This document shows positions 1,821 to 37,118 of a stretch of 40,498 nucleotides of DNA, piece after piece; the first letter of the stretch is position 1; the number at the start of each line of letters is the position of its first letter. A program made the position numbers and the translations under genes. This DNA comes from Gemmatimonadaceae bacterium. GTDB taxonomy: Bacteria > Gemmatimonadota > Gemmatimonadetes > Gemmatimonadales > Gemmatimonadaceae. Location of the stretch: positions 1 to 40,498 of the forward strand of contig DATCGU010000410.1 in NCBI GenBank assembly GCA_036508735.1. The letters are read 5' to 3'. The notes under the pieces were generated by a model, which saw only the letters and a program-made list of their open reading frames with translations, did no database searches and was not told where the DNA came from.

Positions 1821-2398
1821 GGTGGGCTCGGTGGAAGGGACTCCCGAGAATCTCTCGCGTGGCGTCCGGCTGCGGTAGTGTGAACTGGCAGACGCTTTTG
1901 CCTCGCACACAGGCCAAGATGCGCGAGATCATCAAACGGAGTTCGCCTGGGACGGCAGCCGACGTCACGTTTGACGATGGATATCCGCCGATGAGCGAGG
2001 CCCTGAGCTTACGGTCAGCTTACCGCCAGCGATCCGGCGTGGCGTGGCGTGGCGCCGGTGACCTCAGCTTCGTGGCACCGCAAATCGTTGGAGTGGAAGA
2101 ACTCGGAGCCATAGGGAACGGGTCGCATTCGCCAAAGGAACCCGTGAATCTGCCCTCGCTCGTCACGCGGACTGAGCGCGCTGTCGTGATGCTGTATCGA
2201 CTCCCGCAGGAGAAGGTTGAGAATTTTTGTCGGAAGCCCTCGATGGAGCTCGCGATGACATCGCGAGGCACGCCTTATGCTGGAGTCAAATGGCGCACGG
2301 CAAGAGCACGCCGAATTACCTCACACTGGTGTCGGATGATCCACTATTCCCGTTTTCCCTGAATCAGTGCATGGTGGTCCTGCGTCCACTTCGGGGAG

Positions 2399-2899
2399 GT
2401 GATTCCGATGCCGTTGATGCGCAGGAAACCAGCCCGAGCCAAGCGGTCTTCGACGCCGTCCAAGTCATCGACGCATCGCCGTTCCAGTTCCGATCGACAA
2501 AGTCTCATCAAGCGAGTCCTTGCTGGCCTCGCTCCCTATGTGCCGGAGGGCACACTTAAGATCGACGAGACGGGGATGATCGTGGTTGGAGTGGATGGCG
2601 TTCCCCTGGGAATCCAGGTGGAAGAAGAGCCGCCCGTGGTAAGGGTCCTCGGTACTGTGTGCTCCGAGGTGCCGTTCAGCGAGGATCTCTGTGCGTGGCT
2701 TAACGAAGTCAACGCAAACCGTTTACGCATCGGCTATGCGTATTGGAGGGATGACGAGATCCGATACGCCATCGAGGATATCGCTGTTCCGTTCACCATG
2801 GAACACGTTCTCGATGCCCTCGCGGCAGCTTCGGACATGGTACCAGCCTTGGCCCGAGACGCAGGACTCTGGTTTCCTGCACCGATGGTGATGGCGTAG
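2399..2899 (+). CDS. YbjN-like (putative sensory-transduction/chaperone-like fold) protein; start uncertain
   Basis: The C-terminal ~125 aa (LKIDETGMIVVGVDGVPLGIQVEEEPPVVRVLGTV...LNEVNANRLRIGYAYWRDDEIRYAIEDI) resembles the YbjN family. The first ~35 codons are R/S-rich and probably not translated. There is no canonical start codon just upstream of the conserved part. Confidence 0.45.
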   Translation: MIPMPLMRRKPARAKRSSTPSKSSTHRRSSSDRQSLIKRVLAGLAPYVPEGTLKIDETGMIVVGVDGVPLGIQVEEEPPVVRVLGTVCSEVPFSEDLCAWLNEVNANRLRIGYAYWRDDEIRYAIEDIAVPFTMEHVLDALAAASDMVPALARDAGLWFPAPMVMA

Positions 2900-2977
2900 G
2901 ATACAACTGAGCCGAAGTGACAACGCACGGGGTGCCGACTTGATCAACCGGCGCCCCGTCTGTCATTTGCGGCTGTA

Positions 2978-3121
2978 TCTCACGGAGACCGGAGGAGCAC
3001 GAAATTCACAGAGAACGACAAAACACTTGAGGGGTATGGCGGAGAGTCTTGTCCGCCACAGCCCCTTTAGAGTTGTTGCCGTTCTTCGTGCTCTCCGTGC
3101 TGCTCCGGTCTCCGTGAGAGA
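2978..3121. repeat. full copy of the ~143-bp palindromic intergenic element (copy 1)
   Basis: Termini are TCTCACGGAGACCGGAGG ... CTCCGGTCTCCGTGAGAGA, with a central hairpin GGCGGAGAG-TCTT-GTCCGCC. It lies between convergent genes, and the helicase stop is 9 nt from the right end. Confidence 0.85.
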
Positions 3122-3130
3122 AGCACTGAT

Positions 3131-4810
<1,680 letters not shown>

Positions 4811-5909: not shown

Positions 5910-6902
5910 CTACGAAGGCATCGCCTTCTTCTTGTCTGCCATCATGCTGACCATGGCCCCCACAAGCAGAATTCCCGCGACAAGCCCCAGCATCCAGAAG
6001 TTCAGGCTCTCGCCAATCCACGCCTGCAGCCAACGCACCACCAGCATCTTCAGTCCGACGAGAGTCAGGATCATGCTCAGCGAGACCTTCAGGTAGCGGA
6101 ACTTCTCGATCAGGCCGGCCAGTCCGAAGTACAGCGACCGCAGGCACAGGATGGCAAACACGTTCGAGGTGAACACGAGGAACGGATCGGCCGTAATCGC
6201 GAAGATCGCCGGAATGCTGTCCACCGCGAAGATCAGGTCCGTCGTCTCTACGAGGACCAGGGCGACCATCAGTGGTGTCAGGAAGGTCCGGCCGTTCAGG
6301 TTCACCAGGAAGCTCGTACCGTGAAACTCCTCGGTGATCGGGAACCGCTTGCGCAGCTGGGCCATCACCCAGCTTTCACCGGGGGCATCGTCCTCATCCT
6401 TGGTCAGCAGCATCCGCACGCCGGTGTACACCAGGAACGCGCCGAACAGGTAGAGTACCCAGTGGTAGCGCGCCACCAATGCGGCCCCAACACCGATCAT
6501 TGCTCCGCGCATTGCCAGCGCACCTAGTATCCCCCAGAAGAGCACCCGGTGTTGCAGCACAAGGGGGATTCGAAGGTGCCCAAACAGCAGCGCGATCACG
6601 AACACGTTGTCCATGCTGAGCGACAGCTCAATCACATAGCCGGTGAGGAACTTCACCGCCGCGAGTCGCCCGTCATTCTCCTGGTTGTCCACTGCGTCCA
6701 GGTGGGTCCCCAATCCCTCCCAGCCGTTGTGGTACGCCACCCACACGAACGCCGTGAACATCAGCGCCAGCACGACGACGCCCGTGGTGAAGCCAAGCGC
6801 TTCCTTCATGGACGGCGTACGCGCCTTCTTGTTGAAGACGCCCAGGTCCAGCGCCAACAGCATGAAGACGAACAGCAGGAAGCCGCCCCACATCCAGATC
6901 AC
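5910..6902 (-). CDS. TerC/Alx family integral membrane protein
   Basis: TerC signature FLTGYVIELSLSMDNVFVIALLF plus a second DSIPAIFAIT repeat, and the protein is polytopic. Start set at GTG 6902-6900, which overlaps the upstream stop as GTGA. Confidence 0.85.
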   Translation of the reverse strand: MIWMWGGFLLFVFMLLALDLGVFNKKARTPSMKEALGFTTGVVVLALMFTAFVWVAYHNGWEGLGTHLDAVDNQENDGRLAAVKFLTGYVIELSLSMDNVFVIALLFGHLRIPLVLQHRVLFWGILGALAMRGAMIGVGAALVARYHWVLYLFGAFLVYTGVRMLLTKDEDDAPGESWVMAQLRKRFPITEEFHGTSFLVNLNGRTFLTPLMVALVLVETTDLIFAVDSIPAIFAITADPFLVFTSNVFAILCLRSLYFGLAGLIEKFRYLKVSLSMILTLVGLKMLVVRWLQAWIGESLNFWMLGLVAGILLVGAMVSMMADKKKAMPS

Positions 6903-13198: not shown

Positions 13199-15321
13199 AC
13201 GACGGCATGCCGCCGGCGTCGCGAGGACAGGGCGCGTGGCCAGCACGCGCCGCGGCAGCTGTGCTCGTCGTGCTCGGTTTCATCCCCTTCGCCGCGTTTC
13301 TCGACACTGGCCTCGAGATGCCCTGGCTGGGAGCGCAGTTGCGCGACTGGGGAACCGGGTCGCTTCTCACGCTCGGCATCGGCGTGCTCGCCTGGCTTGC
13401 TTCCAGCCGCGGGCACTGGCCGTCGTTTCGGCCGCGCCGGTCGCACCCGTGGAGCCTCGACACCCGCCTGGTATTAGTAGCACTCAGCTCCTTAATACTG
13501 TACATGCTGGTGGCGACGTTCGTCTTCTCGCGGCGTCCGCTGCTCATCGACGAGATGGCCCAACTGTGGCAGGCGCAACGCTACGCCGAATGGCGCCTGT
13601 GGATTCCGCCGCCGCCGCATCGCGAGTTTTTCTCGTTCCTTCACCTCGTCGACCTCGGCGACAAGGTCTACTCCCAGTTCCCGCCGGGCGGACCGTTCAT
13701 GCTCTGGTTCGGCGTTCTTGTGGGCACGCCGTGGTTGGTGGGACCGGTATGCGGCGCCCTTTGCGTCTGGTTATTCTCGCGGCTCGCGCGTGCCGTGGAA
13801 CCCCATGCGGGCGATGGCTGGGTGCTGGGTGCCACGCTGCTCTTCGCGGTAACGCCCTTCGGTGTTTTCATGTTCGGTTCGCACATGAATCACGTCACTG
13901 CGTTGCTGTGGATCCTCGTGGCCGTCGTGGCTCTCGTGCATCTGATCCAAGTCGATTCCACTGCCTTGCCACCGAAGAACGCAGAAAAGGAACAGACACG
14001 CACAGGGGATCCATCGGGTTTCCTTCAGCGGTGGTCCGTGTTCATCCGTGAAATCCGTGGCGAGGCTGTTGTACCTGCGCTCTTGGTTGGATTCGGCTTG
14101 GGTGCGGCGGCGACCATCCGTCCGCTCGATGCCTTTGCGTTTGCGCTTCCGGCGGCCATCTGGCTCGTGGTGCGCGCCGGCCGCTCGCCGCAACGCTGGC
14201 TCGAGAACATTCTTGCTGGATGCGGCATTGCCGTTCCGTTCGCCGCAATGATGTACGTCAACGTGCAGACAACCGGGCACCCGCTGCTCTTCGGCTACGA
14301 GGTGCTGTGGGGCGTCACGCACGGACTCGGATTCCACGCGGCCCCGTGGGGAGTGCCGCACACGCCGCTGCGGGGACTGGCGCTCGCCTCGCTCTACCAG
14401 TGGCGACTGCAGAGTTACCTCTTCGAGGCGCCGTTTCCTTCGCTGTTGCTCCCGGTCATTTCGCTCTTGCTTGCGAAGCGCGTGAGCGCGCTCGATCGCT
14501 ATCTCCTGGCGTCGAGTGCACTCGTCATCCTGTTCTACCTGCTCTACTGGCACGACGGATTCTTCCTTGGCCCCCGTTTTGTCGTGCCACTGCTGCCGGC
14601 GCTCGTACTCTGGACTGCGCGTCTGCCGCGGGCCCTCGCTGAGCGGGTGCACTCGGTTCACGCGCGCGCCGGCCTTTCGGCCGCGCTTGCATTCGGCGTC
14701 GTGGGAGCGCTCGTATTCAACCTCCCCGTACGCATTTCCAGCTATCGGGCGGGACTCACTTCTATGCGCGTGGACTACGCGCACGCTGCCGAGCAAGCCG
14801 GCGTGCGCGATGCGCTCGTGTTCGTGCGCGAGAGCTGGGGTGCCGAGTTGGTTGCCCGACTCTGGGCGCTGGGTGTTTCGCATCCCAAGACGGAGGCGAT
14901 CTATCGCGGTGTAGACGCCTGCAACCTGGAGCGGGAGATTACCTCGCTGGAACGCGAGGGTGTGCGCGGCCCGGCAGCCGAAGCGCGTCTTGCGGTGCTT
15001 GTGGCGTCTGATTCAGCGTCGGTGGTCGGCAGCGATTTTACCGAGCATATGCGCTCCGGGGTGCAGTACACGCCGGTGTGCCTGCAGCGCATTGCTGACG
15101 ACCGCGGGGGCTTCCTGCACCTTCCGCCGCTTCGACTCGTAACGACCGGCAACAACGTGTATGCCCGCGACCTGCAGGCGCACGACTCTCTACTGCTGGC
15201 ACAGTTCCCCAAACGCCGGGTATATCTGCTCAGGCGCGCCGGCACTCAACCGGATGACCCGCTCGAATACCTCCCGTTGAGCCGGGATTCCCTTTTCGCG
15301 GCGTGGCGCGGCGCTCGCTAG
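13195..15321 (+). CDS. polytopic membrane protein, GT-C (ArnT/PMT-like) glycosyltransferase fold, tentative
   Basis: More than 10 predicted TM segments, a first-loop acidic motif ([11 protein letters not shown]) as in GT-C enzymes, and a large C-terminal soluble domain. GTG at 13195 overlaps the mnmG stop as GTGA; ATG at 13207 is an alternative start. Confidence 0.6.
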
Positions 15322-24437: not shown

Positions 24438-24556
24438 AACTGCGGAACTCCCGATTGAACGGATAACGCGGATACACACGGATACAGCATTAAGGAACCC
24501 TGATGGCAGTATCCGTGGTTATCGGTGTGATCCGTTGAATCGGGAGTTCTGCAGTT
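24438..24556. repeat. 119-bp nested inverted repeat (long hairpin) between convergent genes
   Basis: Outer 27-nt arms AACTGCGGAACTCCCGATTGAACGGAT / ATCCGTTGAATCGGGAGTTCTGCAGTT have 2 mismatches. The inner perfect 9-bp stem is CACGGATAC/GTATCCGTG. Each arm carries three CGGATA (TATCCG-like) modules. Confidence 0.7.
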
Positions 24557-29600: not shown

Positions 29601-29660
29601 CTCTCACGGAGACCGGCGCTCTCACGGAGACCGGCGGAGTGCGCTCCGTGAGAGACAAGC
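29601..29660. repeat. internally deleted copy of the palindromic element with an 18-nt tandem duplication
   Basis: CTCTCACGGAGACCGGCG occurs twice in tandem (29601-29618 and 29619-29636). It is followed by GAGTGCGCTCCGTGAGAGACAAGCAC. The terminal 10 nt pair as TCTCACGGAG/CTCCGTGAGA. Confidence 0.8.
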
Positions 29661-29661
29661 A

Positions 29662-31074
29662 CTACCGATTGACCCTCCGCTGCCACTGCGACTGGAATTC
29701 CAGTTCGCTCGCGTTGGTCAGCCGCCAGCGACCAAAGCCGGTCTGGTCGTAGAACACAAGCTGGACATTGAGGCCTCGGTACTCCCACACCTGCGAGCGG
29801 CCACGGTCGCCCACGGTCGCCATGCCCTGGTCGTAGACCTGGGACGGTTCGCCAAGACCGAGGTACACCTTGCCCCGGTCGGTCCTCCATCCGGGCACTC
29901 CCTCTTCCTTGTAGCGGGCGGTCGCGACCAGCAAGCGCCCAAAGTAGTCAAGCAGGTCCTCGTTGACCGACGTCAACGGAGTGCTGTCAGTGGCCCTCAC
30001 GAAGGCGGCCCACGCCCCTGGACGTGCCTCTGGCGTGGTATCGGCCAATGTCTTCAGTCGCCAGGGCGCGGCAAACCACCGCAGGTAGGCGAGCATCTCC
30101 TCGAACTTCGCCACCGGCAGTTCCTCGCCAAACGCCACGAACACCGGTGCAATCACGGTATCGGCGCTGCCGGTGGGCCACATGGAGATCACCGCCACGC
30201 CAATGCCCACCTTTGACACCGGTACCGTGACGACGCCACTGAATAGTTCGCCGCGCCGCGGCAATGAAGTGCTGTCGCGCCAGAGCACGCGACCCTCGTC
30301 GTTGCGCGCAGCGACGGACACGGGAAAGACGTTGCCCTCGCCGTATCCTTCCACGTACAGCGCGATGGACGAATCCCGGCCAAAGACGGCGGTCGCCCGC
30401 GGGTTGCTCACCAAGTCGGCAATGGCCGCCCGCGAGCGGCGCGGCACCACCCGCAGGAAGGGCACCGGAGTGGACAGCGAGCGCGACGCGCCGAGACGAG
30501 GCACCGTGACCAGCATCTCCTGCCTGCTGTTGCGTCCGGTCCCGTCGTCACGGACCGACACGGCGAGTGCATACTGGCCCGGCGGCGCCGTCAGCCCCTG
30601 CTGGAACACGATACTTTCGTCGATTCGCTCCGTCTCCTTGAACGACACCACACGCACCGTTTCGTGGGCCTCGATGTCGCGCACCACAACGCCACCCCGT
30701 CGCAGCGTCAGGCCGACCGTATAGCCGGCAACGAACCGGTCATTGTCCCGCACAAAGGACAGCGACGTGCTGGTGATCGAGAGGCCCACGGAGAGGTTCG
30801 TGGAATCGGGTGCCGCGGCGGCGAGATACGACACGGCGCCGACAAACGGCAGCGGTGCGCCTGCCGACAGGAACCCCATTTGGGAATACAGGCGCACGGC
30901 GTCAAAATCAGGCCCGGCGTTGCTGGGGCGGGCGGGAGCACCGCCGCCGCCGGCGCGCGGCGCGGGCGCCCCGGCCGGAGGCTTGGCGCGTCCTCCGCAA
31001 GCGAGGGTTGCAAGCAGGCACGCGGCAGCGACGCGGCGAAAAGTGGCATCTGCAGTTGGATGAAGCATCGGCAT
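29662..31074 (-). CDS. GWxTD domain-containing lipoprotein
   Basis: The C-terminal GWRTDRGKVYLGLGEP motif is present. The N-terminus AAACLLATLAC is lipoprotein-like. Confidence 0.8.
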   Translation of the reverse strand: MPMLHPTADATFRRVAAACLLATLACGGRAKPPAGAPAPRAGGGGAPARPSNAGPDFDAVRLYSQMGFLSAGAPLPFVGAVSYLAAAAPDSTNLSVGLSITSTSLSFVRDNDRFVAGYTVGLTLRRGGVVVRDIEAHETVRVVSFKETERIDESIVFQQGLTAPPGQYALAVSVRDDGTGRNSRQEMLVTVPRLGASRSLSTPVPFLRVVPRRSRAAIADLVSNPRATAVFGRDSSIALYVEGYGEGNVFPVSVAARNDEGRVLWRDSTSLPRRGELFSGVVTVPVSKVGIGVAVISMWPTGSADTVIAPVFVAFGEELPVAKFEEMLAYLRWFAAPWRLKTLADTTPEARPGAWAAFVRATDSTPLTSVNEDLLDYFGRLLVATARYKEEGVPGWRTDRGKVYLGLGEPSQVYDQGMATVGDRGRSQVWEYRGLNVQLVFYDQTGFGRWRLTNASELEFQSQWQRRVNR

Positions 31075-31155: not shown

Positions 31156-32076
31156 GTGGCTCGCGATCCCCTCGTCGGCACGACTGTTGCCGGCTACCTC
31201 CTGCTCGACCGTGTTGGAGAAGGTGGCACTGCCACCGTCTACAAAGCAAAGCACGCCGAACATGGTTTCGTTGCGGTAAAGGTACTGCGTGAACGCCTGC
31301 GCCAGGACCGGACCGCCGTCGCGCGATTCGTGCGCGAAGCCACTTTTGGCACGCAGGTGATACACCCGAAAGTGGTGCGGACCATCGAAACCGGTCAATC
31401 CGCCGAAGGGCTGCACTACCTGGCCATCGAGTGGGCGCCGGGCGAACTCCTCGAGACGTACGCCAAGCGGAACGCGCCCCTTGCACCCGACGAAGTGGCC
31501 ACCATCGTGCAGCAGATCGCCGAAGCGGTGAATGCCGCGCATGCCGCGGGTATCGTGCACCGTGACCTGAAGCCGGAAAACCTGATGTACGATGCCGAAT
31601 CGCGCGGCGTGAAGCTGCTCGACTTCGGCATCGCCACGGCCACCGACATCGCTCCCGACGAACGGCTCACCCGCGCCGGCTTCTTCGTCGGCACGCTGAT
31701 GTACGTCGCTCCCGAGGCACTGTCGGGCGAAGTCGTGACCCCGGCCGCCGACCAGTACAGCCTGGGGACCATCGCCTACCTGCTGCTGACGGGCGCCCTG
31801 CCGTACACGGCCAAGACGCCGCGCGAGATGTTCACGCAGCTGCTCTCACAGCCTCCCTTGCCGCTGAACAAGGCGCGAGCGGGCCTGCAGTACTCACCGG
31901 CCGTCGAACAAGTGGTGATGAAGTCGCTCGAACGCGCGCCGAAATCGCGGTTCTCCGAGGTCCTGTCATTCTCCGAGGCGCTCGGCAAGGCCCTGCTCGC
32001 TCCCGATGCCATGGACGCCGGTGACAGCAGCGGCGGATTCTTCGGCAAGATGAAGGGGCTCTTCCGCCGGGACTGA
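31156..32076 (+). CDS. Ser/Thr protein kinase (kinase domain only)
   Basis: GEGGTATVYKA glycine loop with VAVK, plus HRDLKPENL, DFGIA and APE motifs. Start is GTG at 31156. Confidence 0.85.
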   Translation: MARDPLVGTTVAGYLLLDRVGEGGTATVYKAKHAEHGFVAVKVLRERLRQDRTAVARFVREATFGTQVIHPKVVRTIETGQSAEGLHYLAIEWAPGELLETYAKRNAPLAPDEVATIVQQIAEAVNAAHAAGIVHRDLKPENLMYDAESRGVKLLDFGIATATDIAPDERLTRAGFFVGTLMYVAPEALSGEVVTPAADQYSLGTIAYLLLTGALPYTAKTPREMFTQLLSQPPLPLNKARAGLQYSPAVEQVVMKSLERAPKSRFSEVLSFSEALGKALLAPDAMDAGDSSGGFFGKMKGLFRRD

Positions 32077-32081
32077 GATCG

Positions 32082-32152
32082 TCTCGCACGGAGACCGGAG
32101 GAGCACCGAGGCCACGAAGAACGACAAACCCTTGAGGGGGTGTGGCGGAAGA
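32082..32152. repeat. left-arm half copy of the palindromic element
   Basis: TCTCGCACGGAGACCGGAGGAGCACCGAGGCCACGAAGAACGACAAACCCTTGAGGGGGTGTGGCGGAAG. The right arm is absent, and the histidine kinase stop follows at 32163. Confidence 0.8.
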
Positions 32153-33290: not shown

Positions 33291-33845
33291 ATGGATTCCC
33301 ACGCCAAGCTCATCGAAATGCTCGCCACGCGCTCCGCGCGCCGCGGCACGTTCACGCTCGCCTCCGGCCGTGTGTCGGACCTGTACATCGATGCCCGCCT
33401 CACCACGATGAGTCCCGATGGCCTGGCGACGATCGGCCAACTGGGACTCGCGCGCATTCGCGCCCGCGGATGGACGCCGGATGCCGTGGGCGGACTGACG
33501 CTCGGCGCCGATCCCGTATCGTACGCCATCGCCCATGCCAGCGCACTCGCCAAAGCTCCCGTGCGTGCCTTTACCGTGCGGAAGGAAACGAAAACCCACG
33601 GAACAGGCAAGCTCATCGAGGGGCCCTTCTATGCCGGCGACCGGGTGGTCGTGATCGAGGACGTGATCACCACGGGCGGCTCGGCGCTCAAGGCCGTCGA
33701 CGTCATACGCGTTGCCGGGGGCACGGTACTGGGCGTGCTCGCCGTCGTCGACCGGGAGGAAGGCGGGCGCCAAGCGCTGGAAGCGGCGGGGCTGCCGGTC
33801 GAGATACTTGCCGGCTTGGCCGAGATTGTGGCGAACATGCGATAG
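33291..33845 (+). CDS. pyrE: orotate phosphoribosyltransferase
   Basis: PRPP-binding motif VVVIEDVITTGGS and the typical PyrE N-terminus FTLASGRVSDLYID. Confidence 0.95.
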   Translation: MDSHAKLIEMLATRSARRGTFTLASGRVSDLYIDARLTTMSPDGLATIGQLGLARIRARGWTPDAVGGLTLGADPVSYAIAHASALAKAPVRAFTVRKETKTHGTGKLIEGPFYAGDRVVVIEDVITTGGSALKAVDVIRVAGGTVLGVLAVVDREEGGRQALEAAGLPVEILAGLAEIVANMR

Positions 33846-33852
33846 CTCTGTC

Positions 33853-33995
33853 TCTCACGGAGACCGGAGGGGCACGGAGGGCGCGGAGAAGGGCAAAACA
33901 CTTCAAGGGGGCGTGGCGGAGAGTACGGTCCGCCACACCCCCTTGTTCACAGCTTCCTTCGCGTTCCTCCGCTCCGCTCCGGTCTCCGTGAGAGA
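33853..33995. repeat. full copy of the ~143-bp palindromic element (copy 2)
   Basis: Same termini as copy 1, with the central hairpin GTGGCGGAGAG-TACG-GTCCGCCAC. It starts 7 nt after the pyrE stop and ends 13 nt before the GxxExxY gene stop. Confidence 0.85.
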
Positions 33996-34008
33996 CCCCC
34001 ACTACCCA

Positions 34009-34401
34009 TCAGCACACGAATCGCCGTACCCCGCGGGCCAGCAAGGCAACGTTGAAGTTGATCAGCAGCCCGCGCCCGAAACCGCCGGTCCTGATGTAGG
34101 TGAGCACCTGGGCACAGTGCACCGGTTTCACGGCCTCGAGTGACTTGAGTTCAACGACGAGCTGGTCCTCGACCAGCAGGTCAATGCGCAGGGACTCGTC
34201 GAGCAGGGCCCCCTTGTAGAAAACGGGAAGCCGGACTTCGCTGGCGAACGCAATGCCGCGAGCCAGAAGTTCCTGCTCCATGGCGCCCTGATAGAGCGAC
34301 TCCAGCAGTCCCGGGCCTAGTTGCCGGTGCACCTCGATGGCAGCACCAATTACCCGCTCCGAGTGTGTGTCGGGTGCAACCTTCAGGTCGAATCCAGGCA
34401 T
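34009..34401 (-). CDS. GxxExxY protein (PD-(D/E)XK nuclease-like small protein)
   Basis: VIGAAIEVHRQLGPGLLESLYQGAMEQEL carries the GxxExxY motif. IDLLVEDQLVVELK is a D...ExK motif, and GLLINFN is near the C-terminus. Start is ATG at 34401. Confidence 0.85.
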   Translation of the reverse strand: MPGFDLKVAPDTHSERVIGAAIEVHRQLGPGLLESLYQGAMEQELLARGIAFASEVRLPVFYKGALLDESLRIDLLVEDQLVVELKSLEAVKPVHCAQVLTYIRTGGFGRGLLINFNVALLARGVRRFVC

Positions 34402-34443
34402 GGTTCTGTGTGCTTGAGGGATGAGAATCTCTAGGGTTGAGAG

Positions 34444-34502
34444 TCTCTCAGTGTCTTTGCAGTTCTTCGTGCACACCGTGGCCCTGCGGTCTTCGTGAGA
34501 GA
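34444..34502. repeat. internally deleted copy of the palindromic element (left tip + right arm)
   Basis: TCTCTCAGTGTC...TTGCAGTTCTTCGTGCACACCGTGGCCCTGCGGTCTTCGTGAGAGA. The right flank GACAAGTCAC resembles that of the 29601 copy (GACAAGCAC). Confidence 0.7.
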
Positions 34503-34515
34503 CAAGTCACAAATG

Positions 34516-35400
34516 CTAGTGCAGCAACAACTGCCCCCGCCGATACCCGCACGGCCGCCCGGAGATGGGACGCAACTCGAGCAGTGCCTCGCGATGCGGG
34601 CGCAGCAGTTCATCGCGAAAGCGCAGCAACATTGCCCGTCCGTCGTGTGAACGGCGAAACTCGCCGGCGGTCATCCCGAGCACGGTCTTGACGTGCCGGC
34701 CAAAACTCTGCGCCGACGAGTACTCGAGCTGGTTGGCGGCATCGGCAATGCTGAGGCCCGGGTTCTCCATCAGCCGCGCCGCGCGCACCAGACGCGCCCA
34801 CGCGAGGTAGCGCTTGGGCGCGGGCAGCCCGGCACGAAAGAACCGGCTCATCAGCGTGCTCGGCCGCACACCCAGCGCGCGCGACAGCGTGCGCACGGTC
34901 GTGGCCGGCAGGCGCACGTGAAAGAGTGACTCGAAGAACCGCCAGCAGTCGTCCGGTGCGCTTTCGAGTTCCTCCCGCAACATCGCCAGGGCGAGGCGGT
35001 CGATGTCCCCCACGGCTTCGTGCGCCACGAACTCGCGCAGCCGATGCCACCCGGCGGCATCGCGCACATCGACGAGCGTCCGAATACCGCAATTGCCGAG
35101 GTTGAGCACGGCGTGCGGCGTGGCCTGATCAACGCGCGAGAGCAGGGCAACCATCGGCACGCGCGGAAACTCGCGAATCAGCCGCGCCACGCCGGGCGCG
35201 TGATCCGACAGCGATCGTCCGACCGACATGAGCACGGCCGCCGGGTTCACGCGCCGGACCTCACGGCGCAACGCATCCAGCGAATCGTGGTGCACTGCGC
35301 GATAGATGCCACTGCCCGCCGCATCGACGCGCGGGCGATCCGTGGGGTCGAGCCAGGTGAGCACGGCAACGGCGGACGGCGACGTCAACTTGAGATCCAT
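34516..35400 (-). CDS. AraC-family transcriptional regulator with an N-terminal receiver-like domain
   Basis: The C-terminal AraC HTH is LSIADAANQLEYSSAQSFGRHVKTVLGMTAGEFRR. The N-terminal ~120 aa have an alternating beta/alpha, receiver-like pattern. ATG at 35400 is preferred; GTG at 35454 is an alternative. Confidence 0.75.
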   Translation of the reverse strand: MDLKLTSPSAVAVLTWLDPTDRPRVDAAGSGIYRAVHHDSLDALRREVRRVNPAAVLMSVGRSLSDHAPGVARLIREFPRVPMVALLSRVDQATPHAVLNLGNCGIRTLVDVRDAAGWHRLREFVAHEAVGDIDRLALAMLREELESAPDDCWRFFESLFHVRLPATTVRTLSRALGVRPSTLMSRFFRAGLPAPKRYLAWARLVRAARLMENPGLSIADAANQLEYSSAQSFGRHVKTVLGMTAGEFRRSHDGRAMLLRFRDELLRPHREALLELRPISGRPCGYRRGQLLLH

Positions 35401-35560
35401 GGCAGCCTCGGGAGTCGCAGGATCGCCGGGGGTTATCGTCCACGCTGTACCCACCCGTCATAGCGTCGTCATACCAAGCATCACCAAACCGCGGAACACG
35501 TCACGCGGAAGAGCCTCGGCCGGCCTTCTTCGTACCGGCCGGGGGCGCTAGGTTGCAGGT

Positions 35561-35952
35561 GGACGTCGGTCGGCCGGACGGTCGCGTCGCGGGAGTGGCA
35601 TTTGCCCGCACCGAGGAAAGTCCGGGCTCCATGGGCACGCTGCCAGGTAACGCCTGGGCACGCTTGGGCACTTCGCCAGACGTGACGGACAGTGCAACAG
35701 AAAGGACACCGCCTTGGTGCAAACCGAGGTAAGGGTGAAATGGTGGGGTAAGAGCCCACCGCGCGCATGGCAACATGCGTGGCAAGGCAAACCCCAGCGG
35801 GAGCAAGGCCAAATAGGCGGCGAGCAGCAGTCCTCTGCGATCAAGACGCCGCGGGTTGGCTGCATGAGTCCGTGGGCGATCACGGGCCGAGAGAAATGAC
35901 CGTCCGGAACTTCGGTTCCGACAGAACCCGGCTTACAGGCCGGCCGTCGTCC
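35561..35952 (+). ncRNA. rnpB: RNase P RNA, bacterial type A
   Basis: Universal blocks are GAGGAAAGTCCGGGCTCC, CAGTGCAACAGAAAGGACACCGCC, GGTAAGGGTGAAATGGTGGGGTAAGAGCCCACCGC, AGCAAGGCCAAATAGG and ACAGAACCCGGCTTAC. P1 pairs 35561-35575 with 35938-35952. P2 pairs GACGGTC with GACCGTC. Confidence 0.9.
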
Positions 35953-36950: not shown

Positions 36951-36965
36951 GCTGAGATCGTAATC

Positions 36966-37108
36966 TCTCACGAAGACCGGAGAATCACAGAGGACACAGA
37001 GAACAGCCAAATTCTTAAGAGGGTGTGGCGGAGAAAGCTGTCCGCCACACCCCCTCAAAAGTTGTTCGTTTTTCGTGCTCTTCGTGCCCCTCCGGTCTTC
37101 GTGAGAGA
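36966..37108. repeat. full copy of the ~143-bp palindromic element (copy 3)
   Basis: TCTCACGAAGACCGGAG ... CTCCGGTCTTCGTGAGAGA with the central hairpin GTGGCGGAGAA-AGCT-GTCCGCCAC. It lies 15 nt after the lipoprotein stop and 10 nt before the dnaN stop. Confidence 0.85.
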
Positions 37109-37118
37109 CCCCCGGAAC

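Follow-up and report, generated by a model that had tools for sequence, protein, structure and literature searches.

A GxxExxY-family gene and its flanking palindromic repeats: a candidate repeat-associated nuclease system in the Gemmatimonadaceae

The closest described systems to the locus considered here are Ssn/NTS, in which a dispersed hairpin repeat (NTS/SRM) borders the gene of its small GIY-YIG nuclease and is cut by that nuclease as ssDNA (Chenal et al. 2025, PMC11893778), and the REP and REPIN populations with their RAYT (TnpA-REP) genes (PMC5581495, PMC3733652, PMC8049555). A Gemmatimonadaceae draft genome contains a gene of the GxxExxY family (TIGR04256; PF13366, PDDEXK_3) between two copies of a palindromic element, and this locus appears to work like both systems while belonging to neither: The defining domains were looked for and not found, and the enzyme fold and the repeat architecture differ. 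PF13366/TIGR04256 is a very large family, with members in bacteria, archaea, and viruses; a 2012 survey of the PD-(D/E)XK proteins lists PF13366 as function unknown. The name "GxxExxY" is rare in the literature searched, with a passing mention in one paper, and that literature yielded no description of a GxxExxY–repeat system. We lean, with somewhat more confidence than doubt, toward reading the locus as a nuclease system associated with repeats, operating in the manner of REP/RAYT or NTS/Ssn but with a Cas4/lambda-exonuclease-like fold.

Like Ssn/NTS, the locus pairs a small nuclease gene of a single domain with a hairpin-forming repeat of its own on one side or on both; many dispersed copies of the repeat exist, with co-occurrence of gene and repeat across genomes and with repeat variants that differ by homologue. 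The enzyme, however, is of the PD-(D/E)XK type with a QxxxY motif, Cas4/lambda-exonuclease-like rather than GIY-YIG; the repeat is a 150-nt palindrome of phased 8–10-nt units with a central hairpin, whereas NTS is a short single hairpin; and ssDNA cleavage has been shown for Ssn, whereas the nuclease here is a predicted one. The likeness to REP/RAYT lies in a single-copy, vertically inherited gene flanked by its repeats, in a gene-less repeat population that persists with the gene and dwindles without it, and in different paralogues having different families. Unlike REP/RAYT, there is neither an HUH Y1 transposase (PF01797) nor a GTAG- or CGTC-tagged REP, and the repeats are long near-perfect palindromes with internal phased units, accompanied by an enzyme class without known strand joining.

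The window, a stretch of 40,498 nt, is contig C410 of a 3.64-Mb draft genome in 429 contigs (designated G000 here). The gene (34009–34401, minus strand) encodes a protein of 130 aa from an ATG at 34401 that is common to all orthologues. An initial annotation, made from the letters of the window alone, had called it a GxxExxY protein, and profile searches agree, with 132 bits to TIGR04256 (cut-off 35; model positions 3–116, covered end to end) and 132 bits to PF13366 (cut-off 22; model positions 3–117); beyond these two, no other Pfam or NCBIfam domain was found in the ORF, and no GIY-YIG domain (cd10448). The neighbors are those named in that annotation, pyrE (33291–33845, plus strand) and an AraC-type HTH gene (34516–35454, minus strand). 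An nhmmer search with a profile made from three full palindromic copies in the window places a full element downstream of the ORF at 33850–33999 (143 bits; 139 bits with the covariance model R1) and, in combination with an alignment, a 55-nt copy upstream at 34449–34503, between the AraC-type gene and the ORF. The proposed copies on either side of the ORF are thus real, their profile-defined ends lying within 3–5 nt of the earlier coordinates, and the spacers measure 42–47 nt between the upstream copy and the ORF and 9–13 nt between the ORF and the downstream copy. The upstream copy retains the left arm and the final ~10 nt of the right terminus, and its description as internally deleted can be kept, because the closest relative (G018) has a full copy of 145 nt at the orthologous position.

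The protein carries the motifs GPGLLESLY (G31-L-L-E34-S-L-Y37), D74, E84-x-K86 (here E84-L-K86), and Q98xxxY102. The residues E34, Y37, D74, E84, K86, Q98, and Y102 are invariant in 17 sequences from the genus; the orthologue in G009, which lies outside this alignment, has Ala in place of the Glu of ExK and Pro in place of the Gln of QxxxY. An AlphaFold2 model calculated from the 17-sequence alignment (pLDDT 89, pTM 0.83) has lambda exonuclease (1avq) and the Cas4 protein SSO0001 (4ic1) as its top Foldseek matches, both weak (E ~3e-3, TM ~0.45); a search of the PDB by sequence gave no match. The predicted fold is restriction-endonuclease-like and would place the protein in the QxxxY branch of the PD-(D/E)XK superfamily.

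The flanking element, designated family A, is a nearly perfect palindrome of ~150 nt. Its terminal stem comprises 18 bp (GTCTCTCACGGAGACCGGAG pairing with CTCCGGTCTCCGTGAGAGAC), its arms consist of about four phased C(A/G)CGGAG-type units spaced 8–9 nt apart, and its center is a hairpin of 14–17 bp that shows compensatory changes between copies (e.g., GTGTGGCGG/CCGCCACAC vs. GCTCGGCGG/CCGCCGAGC). Further copies in the window are full length at 2975–3125 (157 bits with the covariance model) and 36964–37112, a half copy with the left arm and half of the center at 32080–32150, and a short 51-nt form at 29619–29669, for which the orthologous site of G018 holds a full 150-nt copy; an element of a second family, B, lies at 24438–24556. 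Simple unit patterns (CGGAG, CGGAT, etc., with gaps) proved too insensitive for family counts, and covariance models were used instead. Across the 3.64 Mb of G000 there are ~35 family-A loci, 17 of them full length and the others half copies or 41–58-nt forms of the two termini. The only Rfam match of the element, to a plant miRNA family, was dismissed as chance (42 bits against a threshold of 168).

Elements in many intergenic spacers of the window, and the same spacers occupied in several species, are what would be expected if a REP/MITE-like family mobilized by some other factor had accumulated passively and the GxxExxY gene merely sat in one permissive spacer. We strongly disfavor such a coincidence and give it very little credence: Family A occupies about 1% of the intergenic spacers, so that by chance about 1 gene in 10,000 would be expected to have a copy on each side. 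The termini of family A (GTCTCTCACGGAGACC), family B (ACTGCGGAACTCCCGAT), and a third family, C (GCCACAGATGAAC), have no GTAG or CGTC 5′ tag of REP hairpins, and 16 of the 19 genus genomes, including G000 and the most repeat-rich, have no match to the Y1 transposase of RAYT/IS200 (PF01797), which we accordingly rejected as the mobilizer.

Four GxxExxY paralogues are encoded in G000, all of them with flanking inverted arrays of phased 8–10-nt units. Had the 150-nt element been a general companion of the family, it should have recurred at each; family A adjoins the 34009–34401 paralogue alone, so that this part of the original expectation fell, and what stood is that each of the other three lies beside its own type of array. 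The paralogue on contig C302 lies within the loop of an inverted repeat of CACGGAG/CTCCGTG-type units, that on C363 within the loop of an inverted repeat with GCCACAGATGAACACAGAAGAAC units, and that on C1 follows one and a half copies of another palindrome, with terminus ACTGCGGAACTCCCGAT and GAT units in a 10-nt phase. Three of the four unit types also form gene-less hairpin families in G000 (A with ~35, B with ~26, and C with ~18 loci): The arm types of C363 and C1 are among them, and no gene-less family was found in G000 for paralogue b.

We collected the 148 nearest homologues from metagenome and genome collections (47–67% identity), which come from the Planctomycetota, Bacteroidota, Verrucomicrobiota, Acidobacteriota, Chloroflexota, Chlamydiota, and other phyla; no close relative was found in these collections, the best match being 67% identical. 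An inverted repeat (score ≥16) frames 61% of the 148, compared with 0 of 214 windows shifted by 900 nt, and its arms mostly consist of three units of CAC(A/G)GAG, or of CACGAAG or CGCAGAG, abutting the ORF. Arrays of the CRGAG/CGAAG (GAG/AAG) type accompany 114 of the 148 homologues (77%) and GAT-type arrays none, whereas of 29 c/d-type homologues from this phylum 6 have GAT-type and none GAG-type arrays; control windows contain arrays at 4% and 0.5%. The association of unit type with protein subfamily in the two homologue sets is strong (Fisher p = 3e-10). Arrays at 61–77% of homologues in other phyla against 0–4% of control windows, and a unit type that tracks the protein subfamily, are hard to reconcile with a gene that has landed in one permissive spacer.

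The CACRGAG unit and its 8–10-nt phasing are kept from the Bacteroidota to the Acidobacteriota, the Chlamydiota, and this genome. At such protein divergence neutral DNA would be randomized, so the unit sequence must be under constraint, and it varies with the protein subfamily; most simply, the units would be the sequence that the GxxExxY protein reads.

Within the genus, the araC–pyrE synteny is conserved in all 12 congeneric genomes in which the locus is assembled. The ORF is present in G018, G004, G001, G003, G007, G015, G008, G009, and G016, with protein identities of 58–90% that track the identity of the neighboring genes. It is absent from G011, which retains a short and a full element, from G017, which retains one degenerate element, and from G005, which has a plain terminator hairpin only. 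Seven genomes from other genera of the family have 28–155 nt between araC and pyrE and no ORF there. In a two-gene tree, the three species without the ORF fall at separate points within the clade that carries it; this scatter points to one old insertion of the ORF into the araC–pyrE spacer at the base of the genus, followed by vertical descent and three independent losses. The ORF is under purifying selection (median dN/dS ~0.16, with dS 0.48 to G018 and >1 to the others). A comparison of the interval in relatives had been suggested as a check on the pairing of ORF and repeat, and the two are indeed kept together: A palindromic element lies immediately upstream of the ORF at 8 or 9 of the 10 ORF-bearing loci (including G000), and at several of them there is one downstream as well. 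The elements at these orthologous loci have species-specific sequences, all of them built from CAC(A/G)GAG units and a central hairpin.

Repeat abundance was compared with the state of the gene (gene a, the one adjoining family A). Family-A matches were counted with the covariance model R1 on both strands, up to 150 candidates per genome being scored. Nine genomes with an intact gene a have 65, 81, 85, 70, 117, 27, 116, at least 150, and 114 matches; after loss of the gene there are 45 in G011, 1 in G017, and 11 in G005, and G009, with its mutated catalytic residues, has 18. Intact and lost or mutated genomes differ (exact Mann–Whitney p = 0.006), a contrast that comprises three or four independent events in draft genomes 76–99% complete. 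Each of the four loss or mutant lineages has a lower count than its sister species, as in G017 (1 vs. 81–116), G005 (11 vs. 27 to at least 150), and G011 (45 vs. 65 and 117). The repeat models were trained on G000 copies, and diverged families in distant species are missed by them.

Two further pairs of paralogue and repeat co-occur in the same way in the close clade, where the arms of families B and C were counted with the sequence-only models R2 and R3. G000, with genes a, b, c, and d, has 65, 48, and 26 matches to A, B, and C, respectively; G018, with a, b, c, and a fourth gene behind a cluster of B arms, has 117, 29, and 10; G004, with a and d, at least 150, 14, and 1; G003, with gene a only, 27, 0, and 0; and G012, with c and d, 62, 12, and 11. 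G011 is an exception, as it keeps its 45 A matches after the loss of gene a and has 15 C matches with no gene c detected in a 76% complete assembly. Another genome, G002, has 59 A matches with no GxxExxY gene detected; its pyrE is at a contig end, and the araC–pyrE locus is not assembled (pyrE was sought in G002, G006, G010, G012, G013, and G014 and found in G002 only, cut by the contig end). Across these few independent events in draft genomes, the way in which repeat abundance goes with the gene state is suggestive; it hints at a mutual dependence of the gene and its repeat family, the co-loss fitting either direction of dependence. The proposed link between the ORF and a hairpin repeat holds in a more specific form than first envisaged: Each paralogue has its own unit type, and the repeats collapse with gene loss.

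The stems may also have a role in RNA, possibly alongside the recognition by a nuclease that we favor. As a full account of the locus, a device acting at the RNA level seems improbable to us: The arms would form stems in the transcript that are cut by RNase III as in the 23S rRNA intervening sequences, or act as terminators or stabilizers, allowing expression or insulation of the small ORF with no harm to its neighbors, and the dispersed elements would be ordinary terminator- or REP-like hairpins. In its favor, the region is predicted to be much more stably folded than shuffled sequences (z = −7.7), and in one (centroid) fold the upstream arm pairs with the distal arm of the downstream copy, enclosing the ORF. 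The central hairpin of the downstream element (33904–33945, minus strand), followed by AAGTGTTTTG, is terminator-like on the ORF strand in a consensus scan, having 17 pairs of which 12 are G–C; with one site against 0.7 expected from shuffles, it is weak evidence when taken alone. The elements also tend toward gene 3′ ends, 10 of 28 lying between convergent genes against a background of 20%, on crude gene calls that cover 72% of the genome. A stem, however, needs complementarity, yet here the sequence and the phasing of the units are conserved across phyla and differ by protein subfamily, and an RNA device leaves unexplained why repeat abundance should follow the state of a nuclease gene.

The initial annotation had also raised the possibility of a mobile or selfish cassette. 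In its strongest form, the gene and its arms would be a still-active transposable or homing unit, the nuclease its mobility enzyme, and the 150-nt elements MITE-like derivatives. The ORF is an insertion relative to the other genera, compact units of gene plus arms with the same motif occur in many phyla, fitting horizontal spread, the gene-less copies share the arms, and in G018 the 3′ end of the ORF is tandemly duplicated together with an element. Against this stands the fixed synteny of all four orthologue groups across the genus at dS above 1, each orthologue being present in one copy with no duplicate within any genome of the genus. The sole multicopy case encountered, in a Waddliaceae MAG, was rejected as evidence of movement, since its cassettes are passengers inside a 1.77-kb IS630-type element. 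Moreover, a lone PD-(D/E)XK nuclease can cut, and strand joining by such an enzyme is not known. The elements do resemble MITEs and their parent insertion sequences in their terminal inverted repeats, in the large number of short copies without a gene, and in the occurrence of forms with internal deletions; they differ from MITEs in that no target-site duplication was seen, the sole gene-bearing partner is a 130-aa nuclease and not a transposase, and the gene-less copies are full palindromes rather than deletion derivatives with remnants of the gene.

A search for traces of movement in the elements themselves gave a similar picture. Most of 20 full G018 copies are at sites that are also occupied in G000, often by short or partial forms, and those G000 sites that seemed empty opposite a full G018 copy still hold terminal relics; they were therefore rejected as insertion boundaries, and the differences between the two genomes appear to be mainly due to decay and internal deletion. 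Some sites are unoccupied in G011, G007, or G018 (G000 and G018 being separated by a dS of about 0.5, with relics at the unoccupied G000 sites): At 36964–37112, G011 and G007 lack an element, and G001, G015, and G008 have variants particular to each species; at 32080–32150, G011 and G018 lack one, while more distant species have their own element variants in the same spacers. No direct target-site duplication was found at the ends of 39 copies, whose flanks are no more related than controls. Perfectly inverted flanks of 14–16 nt occur at 2 of the 39, and the idea of an inverted target duplication was dropped, as it applies to just these two. Neither for the element nor for the gene was a fresh or clean new insertion seen in the genus comparison. 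The ORF has stayed at one position throughout the genus, and active mobility of the cassette is not supported there; the gene itself does not seem to be moving today, and we consider it unlikely that an autonomous mobile unit explains the locus.

The copies group by genome, the nearest neighbor belonging to the same genome as the copy for 36 of 41 (permutation p < 0.0002). Orthologous copies of G000 and G018 are 74–78% alike and paralogous ones 75–79%, the G018 copies compared being the best-scoring ones, against a neutral identity of ~64% expected from dS = 0.48 (a Jukes–Cantor estimate). This excess indicates that the family consensus is being kept, apparently by selection on the sequence or by homogenization among the copies.

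The reading that we favor, of a nuclease with its own repeats, would combine these observations as follows. The 130-aa GxxExxY protein would be a minimal Cas4/lambda-exonuclease-like PD-(D/E)XK enzyme, encoded beside or between hairpin-forming repeats that are most likely recognized by it. In these repeats, three or four CACRGAG-type units, each about a helical turn from the next, make up an inverted array; where a central hairpin takes the place of the gene between such arms, they form the gene-less population of ~35 loci in G000. The protein would bind the phased units, probably as an oligomer, and cut the element in its single-stranded or hairpin-extruded form; repair that uses other copies, or some copying step, would then maintain the family and the likeness of its members. 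The copies on either side of the gene would be its own recognition sites, and may also end its transcript.

A broader generalization can be offered tentatively, as a possibility to which we give less weight than to the reading of this locus and which we think may well prove wrong: The GxxExxY proteins would be sequence-specific readers and cutters of phased arrays, with CACRGAG recognized by one subfamily and GAT-type units by another, and would form a third phylum-spanning class of repeat nucleases beside RAYT/REPIN and Ssn/NTS, in which each paralogue maintains its own family by cutting extruded hairpins, with repair from other copies homogenizing and spreading them. The model of a cognate repeat makes the PF13366/TIGR04256 family open to a concrete and cheap test. 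Should its proteins prove to be nucleases specific for their units, they would account for a common class of long palindromic repeats at which metagenome assemblies break, would bring the enzyme folds among the repeat-associated nucleases to three, and might, like Ssn, supply programmable-looking site-specific nucleases; the correspondence between unit and subfamily hints at a readable specificity.

The locus also bears a resemblance to the intervening sequences of 23S rRNA with their four-helix-bundle ORFs (TIGR02436), in which, as predicted here, a long stem encloses a small ORF in its loop; in contrast to these, the site is outside rRNA and the protein is of another family. The initial annotation had likened the contexts of GxxExxY proteins to those of the four-helix-bundle proteins, and this holds: Four such ORFs are encoded in the same genome, and at least one of them is framed by short-unit arrays, lying between arrays of heptamers.

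The GxxExxY gene together with its flanking unit arrays, or arms, is found inside an insertion sequence in a Waddliaceae MAG, where a 1.77-kb repeat is present in five copies of 99.8–99.9% identity (loci L195, L196, L201, L202, and L203; positions ~2290–4055). Within every copy lie a gene for an IS630-type DDE transposase and an entire GxxExxY cassette, whose arms are CACAGAG; the Waddliaceae cassette is a hitch-hiker on an insertion sequence.

In the Gemmatimonadaceae genome, the hairpin family B has ~26 loci, and on contig C1 one and a half copies lie immediately 5′ of the GxxExxY paralogue; the family is restricted to the genus clade that carries this C1-type paralogue. The window itself contains a family-B palindrome of 119 nt (24438–24556); after its terminus, ACTGCGGAACTCCCGAT, GAT units recur with a 10-nt period. 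A pair of inverted arms similar to those of family C, the type found beside the paralogue on C363, is also present at 13969–14050 (GCCACCGAAGAACGCAGAA and CACGGATGAACACGGAC, ~80 nt apart), and this pair may be a decayed in-frame element. The 20-kb contig C33 of the same genome is unusually rich in all three hairpin families: Matches to A, B, and C occur at roughly ten sites in the stretch from 2.1 to 16.3 kb.

For family A, which adjoins the GxxExxY gene of the window, the copies at L090 (contig C10 of the closest relative, G018) and L066 (C55 of G018, 6157–6307) each have two flanks that form a perfect inverted repeat with one another for 14–16 nt past the element ends: Either a hairpin was already there when the element inserted, or the palindrome later grew outward. 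At L006 (C55 of G018, 1620–2060), the 3′-terminal ~40 nt of the GxxExxY ORF, along with the element downstream of it, are duplicated in tandem, an arrangement suggestive of slippage or recombination at the repeats. A 10-mer containing a stop codon, CTGAGATCGT, occurs 5′ of two family-A copies in the window (32073–32082 and 36952–36961) and was not observed at other copies. Immediately past the AraC-type gene that neighbors the GxxExxY gene is a gene for bacterial RNase P RNA class A (35566–35951, + strand; Rfam RF00010, 286 bits, full length).

The genome that contains the window also has four genes for the four-helix-bundle "23S rRNA IVS protein" (TIGR02436): One (L101; C295, 2256–2576) is bracketed by inverted arrays whose units are 7 nt long (GTACGCT/AGCGTAC), and another (L102; C158, 2323–2556) is followed by units of the AATCG/ATCC type.
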